Assembly (NCBI GenBank): GCA_050950765.1
Contig: JBMNIF010000003.1
Coordinates: 160,001 to 224,000, forward strand
Direction of reading: 5' to 3'
Source: Bdellovibrionota bacterium
GTDB taxonomy: Bacteria > Bdellovibrionota_C > UBA2361 > JAAYZI01
Length of the DNA: 64,000 bases
Numbering within the stretch: the stretch's first letter is position 1; each line of letters begins with the position of its first letter. Both the position numbers and the translations under genes were made by a program. Positions 45,775 to 58,667 of this stretch are shown one piece after another. The notes under the pieces are model-generated. The model was not told the DNA's origin, did not search any database, and saw nothing but the letters and a program-made list of their open reading frames with translations.

Positions 45775-47539
45775 CCTAAATTCCCGTAAAATTATAGTAT
45801 ACGTGCCCGCATCTTCATTCTTCGTAGTAATGATACGATTTTTATTTTTTGAATTGTTCCACTCCTATGGCTTTTAAAATGTTTCTTTGCATCTTGGATA
45901 TGGTCAGTAAATCTCTTTTCCCTTCAGAATGAAGTTCGCATATGTTTTCTAATTGCTTAATTGCTTGTTTTATTGTCAAGTTTGAAGTTTCTTCATCTTC
46001 TTTGAGCTTTTTAAGCATGACGCTTCTCACAATAAGGCTAATAAAGACTACAAATGTTTTTCCTTCTGTTGTTTGTACATAATGTGTGCGCATACGACGA
46101 TAGTCCATGCCATTTTTTAATTGGTCAAATGCTTTTTCAATAACATCTTTTTCACGGTAAATAGTCAGGGTTTCTTCAGCTGATAAACTTATGTCCGTTG
46201 ATATGAGCGCAAAATAACCAAGCTTTGATTTGTATTCATCAATGGCATCATAGTCCATCTCGTAGCTAATATCGGTTTTTCCATCCTGATGTATTTTGAA
46301 ATATTTAGTTTGACTTGGTTTAAGCTTCTTTTGTTTTACGATTAAATCTAATGCCTCTTTTTTTCGTTTAATGTCAGCATACAATGCTTTTTCATCCAAC
46401 CTAGCCTTTTCAGAGTTGTAGTACATGTGGACTTTAACTGGAATGCCCTCATAGTTTGCTGTATAACTCCTAGCATAAATATCAACAGAGCTTATGAATT
46501 CCCTAGAAGAAAAAGGCTTCTTAATAGTCTTCTCAATCAGTTCTTTGTAGAGCTTGTAGTTTTTTGACAATAGGGATAATGCTTTGTAGCCCGCATCGCA
46601 AACCATCTTAAAGTTCTTTGGAGACAATAGCCCTTGATCTATAACAATCCGTAGGTTCTTTAAACCGAAGTGCCGACTGTAGGCAAGGATTGACTCAAAG
46701 TAAGATTTATCAACGATACTTCCAGGATAAATCTTGTAAAATAAGGGCAACCTTACATCTTCTCCATAGTACATTCCTAAGTTAATTTGAGCCAAATTGT
46801 CATCATCACGATTATATCCCCATTCAACCAAATGCATGTCGTTGCTATAAGAAGAGATGGATGTGACATCATAAGCGACATAACCATCTGTTTTATTGTA
46901 ATTTGTCCATTTCTCAAAAAAACGAATACGCTCCTCCTCAGTAATGGAAGCAAAGAACTCACTGATTGCTTGAGAACTTAGGGGAATTAAGTCTTCATGA
47001 TAATTACTTTGCGCCCAATTAGGGTAATCCATCATGACATTGCCCTGACTTAACATATAAGAAGCTAAAGAGAGAGCCGCCTTTGCTCTCTCTTGACCCA
47101 TAGTATTTACCAAGAGATTGGTTAAACTTAACTTTTGAGCAATTTCCATAAAGCTCGAAATATAGCCAACAGATTGGACTATTTTCTCTGGAGCATGCTC
47201 TGGGAATAGATCATAATAGTTCCTGTTTGGGATGAGCATTCCCGTTGCGTTGTCAAGTTTCCCAATACTTTTTTCATCTGAAGTAGGCTGACCTTTTTTG
47301 TTTCGATAAGCCCTGAGAGTGTAGTAAACGTACCTCGTATCTCCCTTTCCTTTTTTATAAGTTATTCTTTTTTTTGGTAATGGAACCATTTTTTTTGCCA
47401 CAAAACCACCTCCTTGTATACTGCCATTATAGTATACAAAAAGAAAAAAAGCAAGAGATTAAAATCAAATAAATGCTTGAAATCTCTTGTTTTACAGACT
47501 TTTTTAACTAGGTATACTATGGAAACTCAGGAATTTAGG
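45775..47539 (-). mobile_element. Second IS1634-family element (1765 bp)
   Basis: Terminal inverted repeats CCTAAATTCC/GGAATTTAGG; 6-bp target duplication TTAAAA. Confidence 0.92.
45842..47401 (-). CDS. IS1634-family DDE transposase (diverged from copies 1 and 2)
   Basis: AYDVTSISSYS, WGYNRD...LAQINLG, VIDQG and YREKDVIEKAFDQLKN motifs. Confidence 0.9.
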   Translation of the reverse strand: MAKKMVPLPKKRITYKKGKGDTRYVYYTLRAYRNKKGQPTSDEKSIGKLDNATGMLIPNRNYYDLFPEHAPEKIVQSVGYISSFMEIAQKLSLTNLLVNTMGQERAKAALSLASYMLSQGNVMMDYPNWAQSNYHEDLIPLSSQAISEFFASITEEERIRFFEKWTNYNKTDGYVAYDVTSISSYSNDMHLVEWGYNRDDDNLAQINLGMYYGEDVRLPLFYKIYPGSIVDKSYFESILAYSRHFGLKNLRIVIDQGLLSPKNFKMVCDAGYKALSLLSKNYKLYKELIEKTIKKPFSSREFISSVDIYARSYTANYEGIPVKVHMYYNSEKARLDEKALYADIKRKKEALDLIVKQKKLKPSQTKYFKIHQDGKTDISYEMDYDAIDEYKSKLGYFALISTDISLSAEETLTIYREKDVIEKAFDQLKNGMDYRRMRTHYVQTTEGKTFVVFISLIVRSVMLKKLKEDEETSNLTIKQAIKQLENICELHSEGKRDLLTISKMQRNILKAIGVEQFKK

Positions 47540-47639
47540 TTAAAAGCATATCTGCACACCTTTTGATAAAACATAAACAACAACTCCTTTAGCTCTTAGT
47601 ATATAAGATAAGATCTGGATCCTAACTTCCGCTCCGCTC

Positions 47640-47790
47640 TCTACTGGTGTCACTGGCAGGCTTGTCACTGGCGCTCTCTCTACTGGTGCCACCCTCTTTT
47701 AACCTTTTAAATTAGCAATTATTATAGGCTTGCTTTTAACCTTTTAAATTAGCAATTATTATAGGCTTGTCACTGGTGCCACCCTTCAGC
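47640..47790 (+). repeat. GGTGCCACCC mosaic array 3 (2 cores plus a duplicated AT-rich module)
   Basis: Cores at 47685 and 47775; CTTTTAACCTTTTAAATTAGCAATTATTATAGGCTTG occurs twice. Confidence 0.85.
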
Positions 47791-47863
47791 TGGCCAGCTA
47801 AAAGCTTTTTTAAAAAAATGTCTAAGCTTAGAAGTTAGGAAATTATTTACAGAGCCAATTATT

Positions 47864-48763
47864 TTACCGAACCCCTATTTTCCCAGTTCTGCGCTTGTCT
47901 TCAATCAGGCGTTTTTGTTTAAGAGCCTCCACATTTTTTGACGAAGTATCATAGGTTCTTATCATTTTTGCATGCTTAATATCTATCTGAGACTTAACGG
48001 TAGAAAGCTCGTTAGTGGCTTTTTTTAAGCGCTCACTACAGGTAGATAGAGCTTCTTTTGAAGGGGAAGCAGATTGTTTTCCCCTTTGCCCTCTATTTGC
48101 CGCTATTGAACAAGAGGATCTATCCTTAATAATAAGATCCAAAACTTTACTGGCGGCAATTAAATCTTTTTCATAACGAAGTTGCTGAGCATCCAAGGAC
48201 ATTTCAAGTTCCTTAAACCATCTCAAATCAGAATTTGAAAAAATGTCTTTTGTCGCCTTTTCACGCAAAAGTTTTTGCATACTATCTTTAAATTTTTTAC
48301 ATTTTATTTGAGTCTCTTTTTTTAGCATTGTTAAGTTATTTAGTAATACCTTACTTTCTTTTTGCACCTCCAAAAACGCACCTACCTCTTCATGAAATCG
48401 GACATTTTTTGGATCTGGAGTTGGAGTTGAACTCTCTTTCATCTCCTTAGCTGCCTTCTCCTCTTCTGCCCTCTTCTGCTTAAGACTCTTCGACTCTTCT
48501 TCAAACTTATCGAACTCCAGATTTAATCTATCAAAAGTATCTAGTGGAGGTTCTGCCTCTGTGGCTTTAGGTTCCAGCTCTCTGACCAACGCTTCAAGAG
48601 GGCTCTCTTTTTGCTGCGCAAAAGCAAGCGGGGTTATAATTAGTGAAAATAAAACACATTTGAAAAGATATCGTGCATAACCACACCTTTTAAGTTTAAG
48701 CATTTTAGGGTGCATTTCAATTTTTACTCCTTCAATATAGTATCGATTTTTTAAATATAGCAT
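47864..48763 (-). CDS. Hypothetical secreted coiled-coil protein
   Basis: Signal-like segment ending AFA, then charged helical sequence; start probably the ATG at 48715. Confidence 0.65.
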   Translation of the reverse strand: MLYLKNRYYIEGVKIEMHPKMLKLKRCGYARYLFKCVLFSLIITPLAFAQQKESPLEALVRELEPKATEAEPPLDTFDRLNLEFDKFEEESKSLKQKRAEEEKAAKEMKESSTPTPDPKNVRFHEEVGAFLEVQKESKVLLNNLTMLKKETQIKCKKFKDSMQKLLREKATKDIFSNSDLRWFKELEMSLDAQQLRYEKDLIAASKVLDLIIKDRSSCSIAANRGQRGKQSASPSKEALSTCSERLKKATNELSTVKSQIDIKHAKMIRTYDTSSKNVEALKQKRLIEDKRRTGKIGVR

Positions 48764-48949
48764 TATTCAGCAGTAGTGTGCCTTACACATTAATAACATT
48801 GCTTCATTCATTACATAAGACTATCCTAAGAAGCCGATATTGCTTTAAGATTATTGACTATATCACAATCTTTAGCATATTTTAGGGTACTTATCTTTTG
48901 TACCGATCTTTTGTACTGAAGGTTTCTGGCGCCTATTAGGAGAATAATT

Positions 48950-49312
48950 ATGCCACAAGGAAAAAATACATTCGTCGCAGATGACGCTAATCCTATTTTA
49001 TTAACCCCTACTGCTATTGCCATGGTCAAAGAAGCTATCAAGGAAGATGGTCAAGTCGGAGATGGCTTAAGAGTTGCCGTAGCAGGTGGCGGCTGTTCAG
49101 GCTATCAATATTCACTTGATTTTGAGCAGAAAAAACGTGATGAGGATGTTATTTTAGAATACGACGGTCTTACAGTTTATATTGATCCAATTAGCGCCTT
49201 CTATCTACGTGGCACAATCATTGACTATGTTTCTAATGAAGAAGATTCAGGGTTTAAATTTAACAATCCGAACGCGCACTGCAGAACCTGCAGCGGCTGT
49301 TCATGTGGCTAA
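48950..49312 (+). CDS. IscA/ErpA (HesB) Fe-S carrier protein
   Basis: LRVAVAGGGCSGYQY, YLRGTIIDY and GFKFNNPN motifs. Confidence 0.9.
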   Translation: MPQGKNTFVADDANPILLTPTAIAMVKEAIKEDGQVGDGLRVAVAGGGCSGYQYSLDFEQKKRDEDVILEYDGLTVYIDPISAFYLRGTIIDYVSNEEDSGFKFNNPNAHCRTCSGCSCG

Positions 49313-49775
49313 AACTGGTGCCACCCACTTTTAACCTTTTAAATTAGCAATTATTGCAGGCTTGTCACTGGTGCCACCCTTCAGGGACGACTGGACGGGC
49401 TGATACTACAAAACGACTTGGCGGGGGTTAAAAAACTGGAAAAAACTGGTGCCACCCACTTTTAACCTTTTAAATTAGCAATTATTGCAGGCTTGTCACT
49501 GGTGCCACCCTTCAGGGACGATTGTGGCTAAAACTGGTGCCACCCTTTAGTTGGGGCAGTTCAGCTAGGGGCAGTTTTGGTGTTTGGCAGTTTTGGTGCC
49601 ACCCTTCAGGGACAACTGGACGGGCTGATACTACAAAACGACTTAGCTAGACCTGTACGGGGGTTAAAAATCTGGTGCCACCCTTCAGGGACGATTGGGC
49701 GGGCTGGAACTGCAAAACGACTTGGCTAGACCTGTACGGGGGTTAAAAAACTGGAAAAACTGGTGCCACCCTTCC
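49313..49775 (+). repeat. GGTGCCACCC mosaic array 4 (8 cores, all +)
   Basis: Cores at about 49317, 49370, 49448, 49501, 49536, 49595, 49674 and 49762. Confidence 0.93.
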
Positions 49776-50073
49776 AGTGTCCAGCATTCACAAAACATAC
49801 AGTGTCAACCTGCAACAGGTGCTCATATATGTAAAATTCCATGTTTTTCTTATTTTTCAGAACTATGTTTTTTTATTGATGCAAATTATAAAGCTAACAC
49901 GATATAGAGACGACATCATAAGTACTCGCAAGAGGAACAGGTTGACATGGGTTGCATAGTGCCGTCTGTGTACGGACTTATGCGCAGAACTATCAGATCG
50001 ATAATATTTTACACAAAAATCGCTAGGTAGTTTTTGTGAGCACGATCGGGGATAGGAAAATTGCGGAGGTACT

Positions 50074-50340
50074 ATGGATATAAGCGAGATATCGGGTTTC
50101 CCAAGAGGGCAAAAACTTGCGCCTCGTGAAAATCTTGAAAGTAAAAGAATTAAACTTCAAGAAAAACAAGAAAAATGTGAAAATACGGAATGTGTTTCTG
50201 ATGAGATACACCTTGAAGAAAACCAACGTGCACAGCGTATTAAAGAAATTAAGGCACAAATTTTAGGAGGAACATATAAAATAGATTCTTTTAAGGTAGC
50301 AGATAAAATCTTGCGAGATACCCTAATAGGCATCGCTTAA
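50074..50340 (+). CDS. FlgM-like anti-sigma-28 factor
   Basis: RAQRIKEIKAQILGGTYKIDSFKVADKIL matches the FlgM C-terminal pattern; GGAGG ribosome-binding site. Confidence 0.75.
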   Translation: MDISEISGFPRGQKLAPRENLESKRIKLQEKQEKCENTECVSDEIHLEENQRAQRIKEIKAQILGGTYKIDSFKVADKILRDTLIGIA

Positions 50341-50354
50341 CTACTGACTTGTTA

Positions 50355-50645
50355 CTGCCAGCCCCCCTTGTCACTGGCCTTGTCACTGGTGCCACCCACC
50401 AACGCTAAGCCCTTGTCACTGGTGCCACCCACCAGTACGACCTGCGTTGCTGTTTTTGCTCTTCTGACAGCCTTTTTTCTGCTTACACCACTGCCACCAC
50501 CCACCAGTACGACCTGCGCCCTGGCCCCACCCACCAGCCCCAAGCCCTTGTCTCTGGCCTTGTCTCTGGTGCCACCCACCAGTACGACCTGCGTTGCTGT
50601 TTTTGCTCTTCTGACAGCCTTTTTTCTGCTTATGCCACTGCCAGC
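50355..50645 (+). repeat. GGTGCCACCC mosaic array 5, downstream of the RAYT gene (3 intact cores plus degenerate ones)
   Basis: Cores at 50388, 50421 and 50568; internal duplication of 50410-50485 at 50557-50632. Confidence 0.88.
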
Positions 50646-50794
50646 AAGCTTAACTCACCTTAAATTTCCTTAAATTTGATACTACAACTTACGATTAATT
50701 GACTATTTTCAGATTTTAGATAGATCTTCCCTGTTGAAATTTAGATTTCATATTATTATCGGGTCAAAAAAGCAGCTTTTTTAGGTTACTTTTT

Positions 50795-51763
50795 TCAGGT
50801 CGCCACCCCGCAAAGCCTACCTACAATAGGCATACTCGGACGAAATGCCCCATAAACAAACTTAGCTGAAATATCACCTTGCTTCCACTTCTTCCAAGCC
50901 TTTCTACACTCTTCACAAAAAGCCTTATATTCTGCTATCGCTTTTATCCGTAACTCCTTAATCCAACAAATTAAATACGGCGTACGTGTCTTCTTCTTAG
51001 GTACATACGCAATATTTATCGATTGTTGCTGCACTTTACGCATCCCCATAAAATGCCCCTTCCTTTCAAGTGCAATCTCTTCTTCCCTTTTTGAAATCTC
51101 TGTCATTATTGTTTTAAAGATCTCTTCAGACGTAAGATTTTTTGATTCTTCAAAACAATTCTTCCAAGCATCAGGGGTAATCTTAAGCTCATGACAAGTG
51201 TGCGGAAACATATTAAGCATTTTTAATAAAATAGCATCGCTTATTTTATGAAGTCTCTGCGGTAACTTACGTAAATTAGTAGAAGAGGTATACTTACCCT
51301 GCACTGTTAAAGAACCTGATTTATACATTCTAAAACTACTACACCCTTCCCAATCATCAGCGTGTGCAACAAGGCCTGCTTTTACAGGATTTATATAAAT
51401 ATAGACTATCTTATCGATAACATCATTATGAGTTAACAAACGTTGCTCCTTAAAACGTCCATCCCAAACGTTTCTCCTATATTGCGGCGTTAGTTTCTTA
51501 ATAGCACGTGCAACTGCACTTTCCATCTCTCCCATAAATGAAGAGATGTGCTTTCCTTCACCAACTAATATCATGTGAAAGTGGTTACTCATCCAATTAA
51601 AATGAGCAATTCTAACACGATGGTGCTCTTGGCAACGTGCCATAATCCCTAACAGGATCCATTTCATAAAAAGGCGTGCTAGAAATGGCAAGCCAGATAA
51701 TGTTCTATTGGTGACATGTACCACCATTTTATTAGGATTTCTCCTATCTCGACGATTTCTCAT
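50795..51763 (-). CDS. HUH/Y1 REP-associated tyrosine transposase (RAYT-like) with C-terminal extension
   Basis: VHVTNRT, WMSNHFHMIL (HUH), VWDGRF and IVYIYINPVKAGLV...W...SS motifs; flanked by repeat arrays; no tnpB adjacent. Confidence 0.85.
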   Translation of the reverse strand: MRNRRDRRNPNKMVVHVTNRTLSGLPFLARLFMKWILLGIMARCQEHHRVRIAHFNWMSNHFHMILVGEGKHISSFMGEMESAVARAIKKLTPQYRRNVWDGRFKEQRLLTHNDVIDKIVYIYINPVKAGLVAHADDWEGCSSFRMYKSGSLTVQGKYTSSTNLRKLPQRLHKISDAILLKMLNMFPHTCHELKITPDAWKNCFEESKNLTSEEIFKTIMTEISKREEEIALERKGHFMGMRKVQQQSINIAYVPKKKTRTPYLICWIKELRIKAIAEYKAFCEECRKAWKKWKQGDISAKFVYGAFRPSMPIVGRLCGVAT

Positions 51764-51909
51764 AAGACAACTCCAGATGAAAAATAAAAATAATCAATAA
51801 ATTGGCAGAATTGCCGGTTAGTTTGGCAGGATTGCCAAATTCTAACGCTTAATTGTCGCTAGAGTTGGGATTTTATTGTGGGTAAAAATGAAAAAAGTTT
51901 GGAGATTGG

Positions 51910-52195
51910 GATTGGTGCCACCCTTTAGTGTGAGGATGGTGTTAGAGAAAGAAAAGAAGGGTGGCACCAGTTTACCCCCGTGAAGACCTAGCTGATTCGT
52001 TTTGCAGTTCCAGCCCGTCCGGTCGTCCCTGAAGCGGTCGTCCCTGAAGGGTGGCACCAGTTTTTTAACCCCCGTAGAGATCTAGCTGATCCGTTTTGCA
52101 GTCCCAGCCCGTCCAGTCGTCGTTAAAGGGTGGCACCAGTGACAAGCCTGCAATAATTGCTGATTTAAGGGCAAAAAGAAGGGTGGCACCAGTCT
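51910..52195. repeat. GGTGCCACCC mosaic array 6, upstream of the RAYT gene (1 core on +, 4 on -)
   Basis: Cores at 51914 (+) and 51959, 52049, 52127, 52181 (-). Confidence 0.92.
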
Positions 52196-52217
52196 AGCCA
52201 GTTGAACAGGCAACTAG

Positions 52218-53153
52218 CTATTTTGCAGCAGGCGGGGCTTTTTTTCCTTTTTTGCTTACGGTTCGTTTGACAGGAGTTTTTGTTTTGACTTTTCTTTTAC
52301 GATTTTTCTTTTTAATAGACTTCTTAGATGGCTCTTCAGAAATTGGTGCCGACACAACACCATCCTCATTAAAGGAGCCGGTAAAGACGGTTGTTCCTCC
52401 TAAATTGATCTGAATTACTTCATGTCCAAACAACTCAATACACGTTAACATATTTCCATAAACCAAACCTGTATCAACTCCAATTTTTGAAGGAAGATCA
52501 AGGTAGACATCATGGTAGGGAGTATGCCCGAAAACTACGGTTTTATTAAAATAATGGGGGCTTAAGATAAACTCATCTCGAATCCAGAGCATATCTTCTT
52601 CAATTTGAGCATCTAGCGCACGTAAGGGATTCAACCCAGCATGTACAACCACAAAATCCCCGATCATTACACATGGCTCCAACGCTGTAAAAAAATTTAG
52701 ATGTGTTTGTATTAGCTTTCGCTCTTCTTCTTCCGGTAATGAAAATTCATCATTCGGCATATTATAACTCTCAAGAGTCTGCATCCCGCCATTAGCAAGA
52801 TATGAATTTTTTAAGATACTATGTTCAGAACTGAGATACGCTAACAACATCTCTTCATGGTTACCCTTTAAGAAAACGGTATCTGGGAATTTTTCTTTAA
52901 AATCTATTAAATACTGAACAACGCCTCTAGCATTATAACCTCTATCTATATAATCCCCACAAAAAACAACCAAATCTTTCTGACAGAGGTGACGCTCTTC
53001 TAAAAGAAACTCTATTATCAGGCGCAACTCATCCAAGCAGCCATGAATATCCCCTACGACATAAAGCCGTTCTGGTATCTCCTTTATCTCTCTAGGATTC
53101 GACACGCTTCCCCAAACTCCTGATAGTCCTACCAAATATAAGAAACAGTACAA
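52218..53153 (-). CDS. Calcineurin-like metallophosphoesterase (PPP Ser/Thr phosphatase family)
   Basis: GDIHG, GDYIDRG, KGNHE, VHAG, FGHTP and VDTG motifs; start probably the GTG at 53105. Confidence 0.9.
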   Translation of the reverse strand: MYCFLYLVGLSGVWGSVSNPREIKEIPERLYVVGDIHGCLDELRLIIEFLLEERHLCQKDLVVFCGDYIDRGYNARGVVQYLIDFKEKFPDTVFLKGNHEEMLLAYLSSEHSILKNSYLANGGMQTLESYNMPNDEFSLPEEEERKLIQTHLNFFTALEPCVMIGDFVVVHAGLNPLRALDAQIEEDMLWIRDEFILSPHYFNKTVVFGHTPYHDVYLDLPSKIGVDTGLVYGNMLTCIELFGHEVIQINLGGTTVFTGSFNEDGVVSAPISEEPSKKSIKKKNRKRKVKTKTPVKRTVSKKGKKAPPAAK

Positions 53154-53266
53154 AAACTGTCCTCGTCATACATCTTCGACATCCGTGAATTAAAACTATA
53201 CATAAATAAAAAAATATTAAAAATTCAATTTGTTAGACAGATGCAGCAGATAATGATAGAGAGAAA

Positions 53267-54943
53267 ATGTTTTTATCTACTAAGCAATGCCGCTTCAAAG
53301 ATTCACCTATGAAAACACAACCAAAATACATTACTTTCCTTGGCTCAACTGTCTCAGTTTTATTCACTCTGATAGGATTTGTCTTGGTTCTAATCTACGC
53401 CACACTTTATGAAGCACTACAAGGAACAGAATCACCTCACCGTCACGTTTACGATAATCTTTTCTTCGAAGCTATCATCCTCCTAATAGCTGCCAACCTC
53501 TTCATCGCTATTTTGCGCAATTTATCCTCCATAAAAAAAAATTATGCCCTACTCTTAATTTTTCTAGGGCTGGAACTCCTCATCGCAGGAGGGCTTTACA
53601 CCAAACATTACGGCGTACACGGCACAGTACTTTTAGCACAAAATGAAAAGAGCTCTGAAATCGTTAAGGAAAATTCTTATAATTTGCTAATTGAAGAAAA
53701 TAACAAACTTAGATCAATCCCCTTTGATTCACTAAAAAAAGGGCAGATTGTCGCCAAAAATGCTTCAAAAACATTTACAATTGATGATGTAATGAATAGA
53801 TCGTACCTTGATCTACGTGTCCATAATTCAACACAACGTAATCTTGGTATAGATCTAACTTATTCAAATACACAAAACAACACCGAACACAGATTCTGGC
53901 TGATTGCGAATAGCCCTTTCCCTGAGATTCGTAGCGAACGACTTTTTGCTGATACCCTACTCGCGCTTAGAACATTAGATACAGAGCCACTTGATACGCC
54001 ACAATTAAAGATCATCTCAAAGCAAGATAATACCATCTCCATTTTTAATCCCTCTAAAGATCTGAATAATATTACCATTGCTAAGAAATATAAGTTTGAA
54101 AATTTTAAATATTTTCAGAAAGCAGAGGTACATAATGGCGCTCTTGAAGATACAGCATCTTTAAGCAACCCTGCTGTTGAGTTCGATATTATAGAGATCA
54201 AGAGCGACGCTAGAGAAAGTCATACCCGCTTTGCCTTTATCCCGAATTTACCATCTTTACACGGCAAAGCTTCAGATAAAAGCTTTCCACTCTGGATTGA
54301 ACTTGTACCTGCGGTGACAGATTTTCCACAAACATTAACAAAATGTGTATTTGAAGCCTCCGCCACTGACGAGTGGTATTACAGTACAGATTTGACAAAC
54401 AAATTTCCCCTCTCAGTTGGAACAGAGATTCAACTTCCTAACAACAAGAAAATTCATGTAAATAGATTACTAACAAATGCGAAACTTCGTAGGACTGCCA
54501 TCCCTGCACTTGATGGAGATCCCGCACTTCTTATAAAAGATCAATCAGGTAAAAACAGCGATTGGGTATCACCTCTCTTCCCGCTAAAGAGATACCCAAA
54601 TATCTCCTTCTATATTACTCAAACAACACAAACACTGCCCTTTGCTATTGAACTACTAAATATAAACAAACTTTCTCAAGGTAATTCTTTTCATCTTCCA
54701 TCATATCAAGCAGATATTGCACTACATTTAGCGCCTGATACAGAAAGTATTGCAGGTACAGTTACAGTTAACGAACCATTCTACTATAACGGCTATCGTT
54801 TCCTCCTTGATTCATACAAAGAATTTCCTGTAATAGGTAGATTTATTATCGATAGATCCCCTGGCACTCCGCTCTTATGTCTCGGTGCTACCTTAATATT
54901 ACTCGGCATTATTACTGCTTTTCTAGGCAAAAAAGGAGACTAG
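53267..54943 (+). CDS. ResB/Ccs1-like cytochrome c biogenesis protein
   Basis: N-terminal TM segments, large periplasmic region, VTVNEPFYYNGYRF, PG then a C-terminal TM; upstream of ccsA. Confidence 0.7.
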   Translation: MFLSTKQCRFKDSPMKTQPKYITFLGSTVSVLFTLIGFVLVLIYATLYEALQGTESPHRHVYDNLFFEAIILLIAANLFIAILRNLSSIKKNYALLLIFLGLELLIAGGLYTKHYGVHGTVLLAQNEKSSEIVKENSYNLLIEENNKLRSIPFDSLKKGQIVAKNASKTFTIDDVMNRSYLDLRVHNSTQRNLGIDLTYSNTQNNTEHRFWLIANSPFPEIRSERLFADTLLALRTLDTEPLDTPQLKIISKQDNTISIFNPSKDLNNITIAKKYKFENFKYFQKAEVHNGALEDTASLSNPAVEFDIIEIKSDARESHTRFAFIPNLPSLHGKASDKSFPLWIELVPAVTDFPQTLTKCVFEASATDEWYYSTDLTNKFPLSVGTEIQLPNNKKIHVNRLLTNAKLRRTAIPALDGDPALLIKDQSGKNSDWVSPLFPLKRYPNISFYITQTTQTLPFAIELLNINKLSQGNSFHLPSYQADIALHLAPDTESIAGTVTVNEPFYYNGYRFLLDSYKEFPVIGRFIIDRSPGTPLLCLGATLILLGIITAFLGKKGD

Positions 54944-54948
54944 ATACA

Positions 54949-55827
54949 ATGCTATTAAATATCATTACCTGTTTATACTTCTTAATCTGCTTATTAGCAC
55001 TGTTGAAAACAACTACATGTTTAAAATTGAATACTTCCGTTCCGATTTTAACCATCATAATTTTTATAGGTGCCTTTACATTACATTCTTATATCATTGC
55101 AAGCAGAAGCAACTTACTTCTTTATCCGGCTATTACAAACACCTATGAAGTAACGGTCTTTTTGAGTTGGTGTATCGCCTTACTAGCACTTATTTTTTCT
55201 ATGTTAAAGCATAACGTTACGATTCTACACCTAATATCTCTCGTCTGTGGGGTCTTGTTACTCAATGCAAGTCTTACCCCTTTCAATCAAGAGATACAGC
55301 CACTACCAGCAGTGCTGCAAACAAAATTTTGGCTAATCTTACATGTAGTAACAATTATTTTCGGATATGCAGCAATTACATGTAGTATGGTAATAGCTCA
55401 TAAGTACCTTATAAAAAGGTGGTCAAAACCTGCACAAGCAGAGCTTATTCTGCGCCTATTGCAGATCGGCACCGTTGCTATTGGATTAGGAACAGTTCTG
55501 GGAGGATGTTGGGCAGAAGTTTCATGGGGGCGTTTCTGGGACTGGGATCCTAAAGAAAGTTGGGCTTTAATTACTTTTTTAAGCGCACTAACAATACTTT
55601 TACTATATCACCAAAGTATCATTACAAAACGGGGATTAGCTTACGGAGCTATCATCTCTTTTCTTTTTATATTGATGACTTGGTACGGCGTTAATTTTAT
55701 TCTACAATCTGGCTTACACAGTTATGGATTCGGATCAGGTGGAGGAGCCGTCGTTGTCGTATATTTAATCTGTGAATTAATTTTCCTTATGAGGCTTTCA
55801 GGCTTTTTTATAAAATTTTTTAAATAA
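54949..55827 (+). CDS. ccsA: Cytochrome c biogenesis protein CcsA/ResC (system II)
   Basis: WLILHV, GGCWAEVSWGRFWDWDPKESWALI and GLHSYG motifs. Confidence 0.92.
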   Translation: MLLNIITCLYFLICLLALLKTTTCLKLNTSVPILTIIIFIGAFTLHSYIIASRSNLLLYPAITNTYEVTVFLSWCIALLALIFSMLKHNVTILHLISLVCGVLLLNASLTPFNQEIQPLPAVLQTKFWLILHVVTIIFGYAAITCSMVIAHKYLIKRWSKPAQAELILRLLQIGTVAIGLGTVLGGCWAEVSWGRFWDWDPKESWALITFLSALTILLLYHQSIITKRGLAYGAIISFLFILMTWYGVNFILQSGLHSYGFGSGGGAVVVVYLICELIFLMRLSGFFIKFFK

Positions 55828-55926
55828 CAACTCAGGGGAAACACGAAAAGGGGAAATGGTGCCGCCCACCTGCTAGAGGTTGTCCTAAGAAAGTGCCTCA
55901 ACTTAAAAAATCAATTACGAAACAAC

Positions 55927-56310
55927 TTACAGATCAAGATCAGCGCGTGTTTCGAACCTTCCACGAACTTCCCTAAAAGGTGGTTCACTCTCTTCTTTAT
56001 TAACGTATTTCTTCCTGTCGGATTTTTTTTCAACGATGTCAGTGAATCTGTATTCCGCTAATCTCTTTTCAATATTCTGTAGACCAAGCGCACAACACTT
56101 CCGAACAGCCTCTACTGAATACAATGCAGCTCTTTTTACTAAAGCATATTCATGTTTTGACAATTCACGACGTGCGCGCTCTAAGACCTCTTTTGACTCA
56201 TACATCCCTTTGGAGTAGCCGGAGTCATCACTATTACGGAGACAAAGATACGTTTTCACTATCTCACGTTGAAACTCTAACACGAATGAAACGGCCAATG
56301 TCTGTTCCAT
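55927..56310 (-). CDS. Hypothetical protein
   Basis: 127-aa ORF with an AAGGTG ribosome-binding-like site; no family recognised. Confidence 0.5.
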   Translation of the reverse strand: MEQTLAVSFVLEFQREIVKTYLCLRNSDDSGYSKGMYESKEVLERARRELSKHEYALVKRAALYSVEAVRKCCALGLQNIEKRLAEYRFTDIVEKKSDRKKYVNKEESEPPFREVRGRFETRADLDL

Positions 56311-56554
56311 ATCGTCACCTTTCGTCCTTAGTGTTTATAACAGCTATCCGTTCCCATAGTTAAAAAACAAACGAAAACGGCACAACCATCTCTTTTTTGG
56401 TACGATTCGTTAAAGATAATAAAACAGAATTAAAAAATCAACAAAAAAATGATTTTTAGTCTTGACACGATTTCGCCAAAAGCCCCCTTTTAAAACTATT
56501 GCAGATTTTTCAAGACTAAATATCTCGCACAAGCTGCATGTCATGAGACAACTG

Positions 56555-56860
56555 TGGTGCCACCCTTTAGTTTGGGCAGGATCGGCTGACTTTAGCTCGG
56601 CTGCCACTGGTCAGTAGTTTTGGTGCCACCCATTAATCCGCGCAGCCATTTTTCAAATAGGACACCCAAACTCTAAAACTATAACATCTAATAATATCAC
56701 GATGTTAGCAAAAGCTTAAAATTGACAGATCTGGTGCCACCCTTTAGTTTGAGCGGGATCGGCTGACTTTAGCTCGGCTGCCACTGGTCAGTAGTTTTGG
56801 TGCCACCCACCAGTAAAACGGGTTCGACAGGTGGTTAAAAATTCGGTGCCACCCTTCAGT
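56555..56860 (+). repeat. GGTGCCACCC mosaic array 7 (5 cores, all +)
   Basis: Cores at about 56556, 56622, 56733, 56799 and 56845; spacer 56566-56621 is duplicated at 56743-56798. Confidence 0.9.
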
Positions 56861-56916
56861 TGACCAGCTTGAAGTTTAAAAAAAGTTCTTGGTCTCGGAA
56901 AGTCGACTCAAGATAA

Positions 56917-57333
56917 CTACTCTGCACCCTTTTGACCATCAACACTAAAGCAACCTGGACCACTAGCAAGTAATGATAAGGAAACGAAAAATAAGATAAT
57001 ATCCTTATTAGGCAATTCTGGGATAGCAGGATAAGGGAAAAAGCCTATCGGTAAGATAAAGGTTATTATCATAATAGCGGAAAGAACAGCCGCTAAATTT
57101 GTCCATAGCCCGATCAATAGTAACCCACCTACAGTTAACTCAAGATACGGCAAGACAGCAGCATAAAGCATAGAGAGCTTACCCGGTAAAAAGTGAAGTT
57201 GATTTACCGCCTCTACAAAGGTATGCATATTTTGAATTGTAACATACCCTACTATTAAAAAATAAATAGCAAGGGGAATCCTTACTAATAACCCTGTCAA
57301 TCTGGAATCCCATATCGGCTGCCCTAAACTCAT
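56917..57333 (-). CDS. DoxX/MauE-like membrane protein
   Basis: LLVRIPLAIYF, LELTVGGLLLIGLWT and GPGCFSVD motifs. Confidence 0.8.
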   Translation of the reverse strand: MSLGQPIWDSRLTGLLVRIPLAIYFLIVGYVTIQNMHTFVEAVNQLHFLPGKLSMLYAAVLPYLELTVGGLLLIGLWTNLAAVLSAIMIITFILPIGFFPYPAIPELPNKDIILFFVSLSLLASGPGCFSVDGQKGAE

Positions 57334-57488
57334 ATAAAACTCCTTATAAATCTTGACATCCCGTGCCTAAAATAAACTTGTCGTGGATTTTACCCCCTCA
57401 AATAAGACTTTGCCAATACCGTAAAAACATACGCTTATTCTTAAGTTAACTACTTCCTACGATCTCCCCACTCAAACATCTTACGTAA

Positions 57489-58667
57489 CTACCTTCTGCG
57501 CAATACGACAGCTACATTCTTTTTACTCGCCCGTGTATTCTCTCTCGGTTTTAAACAATTTTTAAGGGTTGGCTGTTTTTGTCTAATCTCAACAGAACAC
57601 TCAGCCTCCCAATACCTACCAAGTTGCTGAGAGACCATCTTAATTAGCATCTCATCCAAAGAGAGAGAGGTATCCTTTCTACGCACATCACTTAAATTAA
57701 AAACAGCTCGGCGGCCTCCTTTTGTAACACGTGCAAGCTCTAATAAAAGCTCATTCATATAATCAAGCCACTGCGGCACACTTTCACACTCTTGCGGATA
57801 CTCTTCCTTCATAGAACATCCTGCAAACCAACGTCGTAACCACATCTCTGACTTATATAAACGGTGATTCGGCAAAGGGGGTGTTGTTAAAACCAAATCC
57901 ACAGAATTCGGTTGCAGTTCAAGAAGGTTACGAGGATCTGAAAGAAGTGCTCTACTTTCAGAAGAAGCCTGATATAAACTAGAAGGAAGCCCGTCTCTAA
58001 GCACCACAGCAGATCGTCTTAAAATTCTTGGAATCGTTGCTCTATAATCAGGTTCTTGACTACGCTTAGCATTTAGTGCCAGTTGATCAGCGGGCGAAAT
58101 AGAAATTTGAGCCCCCGTATAAACAGAAAAAAATCCTGCTCCATGTCCATGCAATAACCCTAATGTGATAGCCTCTATAAAACGTGCCACCCTGCTATTC
58201 TCATGATCTCTTACATAACGACGTAAGTTTACGAGCTCTCTAAAGGTAGCCACATCATAGAATGGAGCAAAATATTGCAGATACGCCCCTAACTCTACCG
58301 GTCTTCTTAGATCTATCATCTGTAAAGCTAAAGTAACTTCTGTAATATCAGCAGGATACATTTTAGAGGCAGTAATTCGAAGCCCCAACGGATCTGTATC
58401 GACTGCAAAAACACATCTCCCCGAAAGCAAAGCCTCTAATGCCACATCCCCTGATCCTGCAAACGGATCTAAAACCAGATCTCCTGTTCGTGAATAATTC
58501 TTTAAAAAATGAGCCATCACATCAGGATTACCACGTTCCGGAATGGGAACTATATAGTGTAAAGAATGAGACCTCTCCTCACCTGAAGAGGATGTAAGAT
58601 CTAATGTTTTCTTTAAGAATGGTATATCTTCTGCGATTTTCATCTTTAAAGCTAACTGACCAGCCAC
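57489..58667 (-). CDS. Amino-DNA methyltransferase-like protein with an altered catalytic motif
   Basis: GDLVLDPFAGSG SAM-binding motif; SVDLVLTTPPL where TSPPY is expected; ELARVTKGG. Confidence 0.7.
   Translation of the reverse strand: MAGQLALKMKIAEDIPFLKKTLDLTSSSGEERSHSLHYIVPIPERGNPDVMAHFLKNYSRTGDLVLDPFAGSGDVALEALLSGRCVFAVDTDPLGLRITASKMYPADITEVTLALQMIDLRRPVELGAYLQYFAPFYDVATFRELVNLRRYVRDHENSRVARFIEAITLGLLHGHGAGFFSVYTGAQISISPADQLALNAKRSQEPDYRATIPRILRRSAVVLRDGLPSSLYQASSESRALLSDPRNLLELQPNSVDLVLTTPPLPNHRLYKSEMWLRRWFAGCSMKEEYPQECESVPQWLDYMNELLLELARVTKGGRRAVFNLSDVRRKDTSLSLDEMLIKMVSQQLGRYWEAECSVEIRQKQPTLKNCLKPRENTRASKKNVAVVLRRR

Follow-up and report, generated by a model that had tools for sequence, protein, structure and literature searches.

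The stretch of DNA analysed here (the window) comprises 64,000 nucleotides (nt) of a Bdellovibrionota bacterium, G000:C3:160001-224000 in our numbering of genomes (G) and contigs (C), and belongs to a genome of 2.64 Mb in five contigs, 94% complete. Most sequencing runs carrying the window sequence are from digesters and bioreactors. An flgM-like gene and a metallophosphoesterase gene converge with their 3' ends, and between them lies a gene for a Y1/HUH transposase of 322 amino acids (aa), bordered on both sides by arrays of a short motif (Table 1). As described in the initial annotation, the protein carries NHFH and YIYINPVKAGLV, and the flanking motifs are mostly in opposite orientation, three on the + strand to the left of the gene, one on the + strand and four on the - strand to the right. 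[quoted passage not shown]

Table 1. Features of the element and its surroundings (window positions, unless a contig is named).
Feature	Position	Strand	Remarks
Separate 8-copy array, 3' end of HesB/IscA-family gene	49317..49772	+	9-nt scar at 49746-49763; example of dispersed arrays
Host flgM-like gene	50074..50340	+	left flank of insertion
12-nt tandem duplication ending exactly at TGG/TGCCACCC	50366..50389	+	putative nick scar
Downstream-end array	50387..50566	+	motifs at 50387, 50420
Partial end duplications	C2:8905-9324, C2:891672-891924, C2:891441-891588; window 50414-50499
12-nt tandem duplication ending exactly at TGG/TGCCACCC	50546..50569	+	putative nick scar
End motif TGGTGCCACCC, head ACCAG	50567..50577	+	downstream of Y1 gene
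Element core common to all six copies	50567..51969	.	98-98.5% identity over ~1410 nt; inward-facing TGGTGCCACCC at both ends
Y1/HUH transposase gene, 322 aa (H61, H63, W100, Y121, N125, S142-S143)	50795..51763	-	one of six near-identical genome copies
C-terminal domain coding region (residues ~150-312, long helices)	50828..51316	-	without Pfam family
6-nt tandem duplication (GATTGG x2)	51904..51915	+	ends at TGG/TGCCACCC of inner upstream motif
Inverted doublet: motif + at 51913, motif - at 51959	51913..51969	.	13-bp stem; upstream of all six gene copies
Upstream-end array	51970..52191	-	motifs at 52049, 52128, 52181
Host metallophosphoesterase gene	52218..53153	-	right flank; converges on flgM across element

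The catalytic residues of the protein, in NHFH at 60-63 (H61, H63) and in YIYINPVKAGLV (Y121, N125; YIYINP at 121-126), are kept in at least 90% of 132 homologues. It matches Pfam Y1_Tnp (E 7e-7) and scores 67.4 bits with the NCBIfam RAYT profile NF047646, short of the curated cut-off of 80, versus 18 bits with the IS200 profile NF033573; 129 of the 132 family members match NF047646 at E<=0.001. An AlphaFold model built from the 132 homologues is confident (predicted local distance difference test, pLDDT, 94.6; predicted template modelling score 0.92), and its best structural match is E. coli TnpA-REP, 4ER8 (Z 14.3, root-mean-square deviation 2.7, 154 residues aligned, against Z 7.8 for IS608; Foldseek E 1.4e-6 against ~3e-3 for IS608/ISDra2). 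The modelled catalytic core thus matches the fold of E. coli TnpA-REP and not that of IS200 TnpA, in line with its initial annotation as RAYT-like. Residues ~150-312 form a conserved domain with a terminal family signature, PPGxFxP, here VYGAFRP; the protein had been described as ending in FVYGAFRP, which in fact occupies residues 302-309, with 13 more residues following. No common Pfam family was found in this ~160-aa domain in any of the 132 members, and helix-turn-helix (HTH) or Bac_DnaA_C families were found in 0/132 at E<=0.01. ESM Atlas returned unnamed clusters only, mostly from Myxococcota (0.85-0.88 by features, TM 0.65-0.81 by structure), and the domain folded alone, without alignment, reached pLDDT 46. 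Since searches with the whole model barely probe this domain, its fold is not established as new.

Homologues, ~30% identical and mostly ~320 aa long, are present in 37 of 41 genomes searched, its own genome counted, and 2723 representatives match at E<=0.001 and 91 at 1e-30. A GTDB scan with a 15-sequence alignment gave 8 loci, homologue records being titled Bdellovibrionota and similar; a metagenome scan gave only 2, both distant, a phage search one weak match and a plasmid search no match. In a quick tree (80 rows, 141 columns, no IS200 rows; 7 truncated or mis-parsed proteins excluded) the 322-aa family and proteins resembling subclass 2.3 of class-2 TnpA-Y1 stand apart from the short RAYTs and E. 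coli RayT (SH-aLRT branch support 99); because its branches are long and its resolution weak, we use the tree for this separation only.

The motif core GGTGCCACC occurs 65 times in the window, where the initial annotation counted about 65 by hand, against 0.07 +/- 0.26 in shuffles, and the copies fall into nine clusters (7, 19, 2, 8, 3, 5, 5, 4 and 12). Its conserved unit had been taken for a 9-bp palindrome, GGTG-C-CACC, and is instead the 11-mer TGGTGCCACCC: T precedes GGTGCCACC in 97% and C follows it in 98% of 986 genomic sites, and the palindrome is not preserved in most relatives' end motifs. The genome holds 943 exact and 1083 near-exact copies, 1020 of them in 114 clusters, and the arrays span 67.8 kb, or 2.6% of the genome. 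The tandem arrangement noted earlier in the window is general, with 878 of 906 adjacent motif pairs head-to-tail and 28 inverted; facing pairs with a variable spacer number 23. So is the intergenic position: 884 of the 943 exact copies lie outside open reading frames (ORFs) of at least 100 aa, which by crude calls make up 81% of the sequence, and 74 of 98 arrays start where a co-oriented gene has its 3' end (p 4e-7). By local GC skew the arrays divide 46 vs 52 between the replication strands (p 0.61), without bias; the test applies to arrays and not to the six genes. Of the 878 units 774 are distinct; one family of 79-nt units, to which those upstream of the element's own gene belong, has 198 members spread over 77 arrays. 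The classes of tail and head on the two sides of the motif are only weakly linked (Cramer's V 0.11). A CRISPR-like reading was set aside, as 648 of the 878 units are fully matched among other units; no search for cas genes was made.

A hairpin around every motif was considered and rejected: covariation did not rise above, and pairing was no better than in, shuffled columns. The earlier statement that the repeats have no long stem therefore stands for single copies, of which only those with an ACCAG head (~30%) have a stem of 5-6 bp; it does not extend to the 46-nt inverted doublet upstream of the gene, which pairs over 13 bp. Two further observations concern the arrays. Of the 395 sites of an IHF-like consensus, WATCAANNNNTTR, in the genome, 107 lie 38-39 nt before GGTGCCACC, where they belong to a single family of units. 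Two stretches, G000:C2:500000-800000 and C3:600000-709000, are nearly free of arrays, the former spanning a switch of GC skew near 600 kb.

The genome contains six full-length copies of the gene and one 3' fragment. The full copies are 99% identical, differing by 0-14 nt, with 15 synonymous against 3 non-synonymous variable sites (p 1e-5 or lower). They sit at unrelated loci on four contigs, each with end motifs facing inward at both ends, and between these motifs the copies are ~98% identical across ~1410 nt. In gene orientation all share one layout: host sequence, inward-facing motif-units, the 46-nt inverted doublet, 150 nt, the gene, 220 nt, inward-facing motif-units and host sequence again. 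tnpB is not present in the core. The companion units vary in number and order between copies; 20 of 26 element-linked units find their best match beside another copy of the element, none elsewhere, and 6 are unmatched, therefore the ends travel with the gene and get reshuffled. At the present locus the downstream-end array is made up of a 33-nt unit that recurs beside other copies of the element and a partial copy, 86 nt long, of the element end. In the upstream-end array, two members of the 79-nt family that is spread over the genome stand with a 53-nt unit confined to the flanks of element copies. Such partial duplications of the downstream end (420, 253, 158 and 86 nt) are one-ended, starting at the motif and stopping at variable inner positions; that of 420 nt includes the gene's 3' fragment. 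Among element-linked motif copies, C precedes TGG in 34 of 42. Contigs with the gene have ~5-7x the depth of flanking contigs in 4/4 sequencing runs (4 studies), which argues against an assembly artefact; depth is a rough guide here and gives no copy number, and one of the four runs may be the source sample. A multicopy gene bounded by terminal inverted repeats has the TIRtron arrangement, as that term is introduced in PMC3733652, and is not a domesticated REP system. Of the distinct RAYT class with a minimal motif envisaged in the initial annotation, what holds is a class-2 RAYT-like HUH enzyme with a non-hairpin motif in tandem arrays, and what does not is a stationary single-copy gene of the REP type.

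The position of the cut is suggested by small duplications beside the motif. We collected 62 distinct perfect tandem duplications of 6-30 nt within 60 nt of a motif, which we call scars: TGG/TGCCACCC is the unambiguous end of 16 and a compatible end of 25, the next-best offset having 3. They occur at 32 of 943 motif TGGs, compared with 12 of 3835 other TGGs in arrays and ~1 per 1000 elsewhere (inherited copies counted), and at 0/943 TGGs of the opposite strand. Three lie within the element region itself (Table 1). Of 13 scars in G019, a relative from another family that is discussed below, 6 are exact and 7 compatible; for the other relatives, 16 of 25 have their end between -1 and +7 with respect to the relatives' own motifs. 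Broken units retain the 3' part of the motif in 37 of 104 cases and the 5' part in 2 of 158, counts in which copies are not independent. The scars thus likely mark the position of a nick, TGG/TGCCACCC.

Across the family, inverted repeats of at least 12 nt flank 20 of 51 genes, compared with 2.3% of mismatched flank pairs. Many of these repeats open with C or T and then TGG, after which come bases specific to the element. Some relatives have tandem arrays of their own ends next to the gene: L043 (G002:C23), with 22 copies of TGGAGCAGGGC, L017 (G015:C30), L016 (G030:C232) and L055 (G027:C38). In G025 two copies of 1325 nt are 94% identical, and the match is lost at most ~12 nt outside TGGTGCCACCC at both ends. 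More than five copies of TGGTGCCACCC are found in only 3 of 40 relatives, G019 (37), G025 (16) and G040 (9); in the latter two the motif stands beside a family gene. These comparisons support the view that enzyme and end motif go together across relatives, each enzyme carrying its own.

Cleavage by an HUH enzyme yields a 5'-phosphotyrosine together with a free 3'-OH. A cycle of nicking, extension and rejoining was proposed to add units to bacterial interspersed mosaic elements (BIMEs), as modelled by Ton-Hoang et al., 2012 (Fig. 7B, PMC3333891). Such a cycle duplicates sequence 3' of the nick, while our scars lie 5' of TGG/TG, so we infer that the nick falls on the opposite strand. The enzyme would cut the strand reading GGGTGGCA/CCA, its tyrosine keeping the 5'-CCA end, a host polymerase would extend the free 3'-OH outward, and the enzyme would rejoin the extended end. 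If rejoining came early, after 6-30 nt, a scar would result; if copying ran on to the next motif, a unit would be gained or set free as a circle, whose re-entry at any other motif would produce the mosaics of mixed tails and heads. Were the enzyme to use the outermost motif at each end, the gene and its companion units would move together. The element-specific bases are probably read by the C-terminal domain. The two inverted ends could possibly be handled by pairing on one strand, for which the doublet has its 13-bp stem.

Strand assignment is the weakest step in this scheme. In 74 of 98 arrays the motif is on the sense strand of the upstream gene, so that the strand we propose to be nicked is the template strand, normally not exposed by transcription; the bias more simply exposes the other one. 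The same enzyme might then act at the same site on that other strand, its nick leaving TGG-3'OH, and exchange tail and head cassettes in the manner of a site-specific recombinase of single strands; the scars would come from slippage of the free end or from its joining to a second, loosely chosen cut upstream. The scars fix the position of the phosphodiester and not its strand, the motif strand is the non-template one in those 74 arrays, the C before TGG in most element-linked copies recalls the cleavage between C and T described for TnpA-REP (PMC8266576), and the partial end duplications of 86-420 nt have the variable inner ends that this view would accommodate. Extension of TGG-3'OH and rejoining would, however, give duplications starting at TGCCACCC, none of which was found, and we regard this version as rather doubtful.

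Several observations weigh against the element as we read it. An empty-site joint across the element was not found in four runs (X1, X2, X3, X7), nor a flush target-site duplication at the 4 copies, of the six, that were checked, and 14 of 28 informative site pairs are incompatible among the six copies, which reflects gene conversion or assembly mixing. Together with the purifying selection these would suit a domesticated RAYT-like gene that spreads repeats without transposing itself, its extra copies being carried passively by host recombination between flanking repeats and homogenised by gene conversion. We consider this unlikely: the six loci are unrelated, on four contigs and bounded by inward motifs at both ends, the best matches of the companion units are not in local or other arrays, and G025 shows the same end-to-end pattern. 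Among the relatives, no inverted repeats of at least 12 nt were found at 31 of 51 loci, 6 of 51 have direct repeats of that length, scar ends range from -1 to +7, no more than 5 of 25 being compatible with +3, and the same 11-mer flanks enzymes of G025 and G040 that are only ~28-30% identical and not nearest relatives. A pair of 96%-identical Y1 genes in G065 (C1:870500-874800 and C2:1453700-1458000; L128, L129) has only ~1 kb around the gene in common, and no end motif is apparent where the match stops.

The remaining difficulties concern the motif without the enzyme. The initial annotation would be refuted if relatives without the gene carried the motif equally, and on this point G019 is unfavourable: it has 37 motifs, inverted doublets and scars, and three queries found no homologue there; as this genome is 92% complete and has motifs within ~260 nt of three contig ends, its weight against a strict co-occurrence of motif and enzyme is softened. 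Three of its doublets, at C9:10193-10325, 97491-97665 and 172178-172319 (L090, L093, L094), resemble MITEs (miniature inverted-repeat transposable elements), being 130-175 nt long with ends TGGTGCCACCCT(G/C)TTT and A/T-rich interiors. In our own genome there are arrays in which the 79-nt unit is still tandem while the motifs are decayed or lack their 5' half (C2:794000, C2:169200, C1:77250, C2:1031500 and C3:493000), so that some expansion may not need the motif. Finally, a second Y1 HUH gene (G000:C1:418239-419291; L008:1090-2142, +), single-copy and subclass 2.3-like, encoding 350 aa with NHLH and YVDLNP, has its own flanking motif, (T)AGGACACCC(A); 221 GGACACCC sites occur in the genome, many within the main arrays, where 123 of 131 are in opposite orientation, and the arrays may therefore record two enzymes. 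On these grounds, and with the IHF-like consensus recurring at a fixed distance, one could argue that the motif is a target rather than the element's end, the arrays arising by slippage at a host-protein site or through the second enzyme, and the element inserting into them. This seems to us very unlikely, since inverted ends built alike, but specific to each element, occur in the relatives, the units travel with the element, and the second enzyme is flanked by a different motif without a scar peak (0/17 at the equivalent offset); the incompleteness of G019 and its motifs at contig ends also count here. That this is an assembly artefact, or an ordinary element of the IS200/IS605 type carrying its own subterminal hairpins, is largely refuted. 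The high identity of the copies is IS-like, and folding of the gene's upstream 149 nt is somewhat stronger than that of shuffled sequence (z -2.5), but the protein has YxxxNP and not YxxxQ, both profile scores and Foldseek favour the RAYT side, the core lacks tnpB, and the downstream end is unstructured (z -0.8); independent runs show the gene, its flanks and the raised depth.

Compared by description, the closest known kind to the mobile element that we favour is the TIRYT/TIRtron (class-2 TnpA-Y1, subclass 2.1-like), here with BIME-like mosaic arrays. TIRYTs as defined by Di Nocera, De Gregorio and Rocco (2013, PMC3733652) are tyrosine transposase genes flanked by terminal inverted repeats (TIRs), their proteins being published as four groups, and the present element shares with that description a RAYT-like gene between TIRs unrelated to GTAG REPs and a dispersed repeat family of singles, dimers and clusters. 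The same source calls TIR families 'moderately abundant' and TIRYTs less productive, whereas here we find 943 copies in polar mosaic arrays, six near-identical gene copies, an 11-bp end and base-precise scars; the consensus GGGGWSAS, given for some published TIRs only, is absent from the motif and from relatives' ends. At the level of the protein, NH[YF]H, W, YxxxNP, SS (S142-S143) and an HUH-Tyr spacing of 58, within the range of 58-67, agree with the account of subclass 2.1, or RAYT group 1, in PMC6006769, as do the long C-terminus and the lack of a canonical REP (also PMC5581495). Bertels, 2017 (PMC5581495) gives group 1 the highest duplication rate of RAYTs, 6.2%. In contrast, the protein is 322 aa long against a median of 238, intragenomic identity is 99% against the 49% reported, the Pfam HTH/DnaA_C domains that feature in subclass 2.1.2 are absent from the 132 members, and linked repeats are abundant; Quentin, 2018 (PMC6006769) found REP-like repeats for neither subclass 2.1 nor subclass 2.3 and no sign that class 2 is mobile. 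For subclass 2.1.1 the same paper gives a conserved C-terminal extension of its own. The 55-aa core insertion and YVDLNP described for subclass 2.3 are lacking here and present in the genome's other Y1 gene, which belongs to a separate clade.

With E. coli TnpA-REP/RayT (4ER8; PMC3333891, PMC8266576) the element has in common the catalytic fold, extragenic mosaic arrays, some IHF-like linkers and scars that fit the amplification model proposed there. It differs in having no GTAG-footed hairpin, a direct arrangement of repeats, a multicopy gene and an apparent cut inside the motif, in place of the distant CT sites described in PMC8266576, a source that presents cleavage as mapped for RAYT groups 2 and 3 only. 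Like classical REPtrons and REPIN-RAYT systems it has extragenic high-copy repeats flanking the gene, at all six copies, but these lack a GT[AG]G-footed hairpin of 20-40 nt, and the gene is six-copy and not single-copy and non-mobile. Inverted doublets such as those of REPINs (Bertels and Rainey, 2011, PMC3116915; bioRxiv 10.1101/2021.07.10.451892) exist, including the MITE-like ones of G019, yet are a minority here; conversely, a few tandem REP arrays are described for P. fluorescens SBW25 (PMC3116915). Table S1 of PMC6006769 has GGTGCC-footed hairpins for some Acidobacteria and Planctomycetes enzymes, a likeness limited to the first bases. IS200/IS605 TnpA (IS608, ISDra2) shares the HUH/Y1 chemistry and multicopy state at >95% identity; the present protein is twice as long (IS200, ~150 aa), and inverted ends and arrays free of replication-strand bias set the element further apart. 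A literature search, with most subscription journals outside its coverage, found no publication on this family, motif or scar pattern and no biochemistry of TIRYTs, which were named in 2013; among the matches listed for the motif letters, none is on bacterial repeats by title.

A broader proposal, which we make tentatively and would place short of an even chance, is that these elements form an unrecognised family of autonomous single-strand transposons, common across this bacterial class, which combines a RAYT-like core with an undescribed 160-aa domain, a hairpin-free 11-base end, a cut at a fixed base, cassette shuffling and array writing by rolling circle. If true, the enzyme would be a recombinase that relocates its own gene and, through rolling-circle copying both abortive and complete, lays down polar arrays of kilobase length. 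A nick-extend-rejoin step has been proposed for REP amplification, and the scars would be its first footprint in a genome; the family would be a living intermediate between IS200-like transposons and domesticated RAYTs. Through the scars, the spread of short repeats by such enzymes becomes open to test. The locus offers a minimal substrate, a predicted cut position and a recently active enzyme under purifying selection, and the dozens of relatives, whose end motifs differ, are material for specificity-swap tests. A sequence-specific nickase and ligase of single-stranded DNA, predicted to need only ~11 bases, would also be a useful tool.

Some minor features of the region complete the description. 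We take a 101-aa ORF at 50368-50673, which overlaps the array, to be spurious. An Rfam scan of 47000-57500 gave 0 matches, and a promoter and terminator scan gave hits at chance level only. A motif-like sequence, GGTCGCCACCC (on the + strand), at window 50798-50808, overlaps the final codons of the Y1 gene. Two short palindromes of the type GGCA-N4-TGCC at window 51800-51845, 40-80 nt upstream of the Y1 start codon, are a possible operator or possible subterminal hairpins, lying in the upstream region that folds at z -2.5. Further away, at window 45842-47401 (-), there is an IS1634-family transposase gene (NF033559, 240 bits), which is multi-allelic in the sequencing runs examined.

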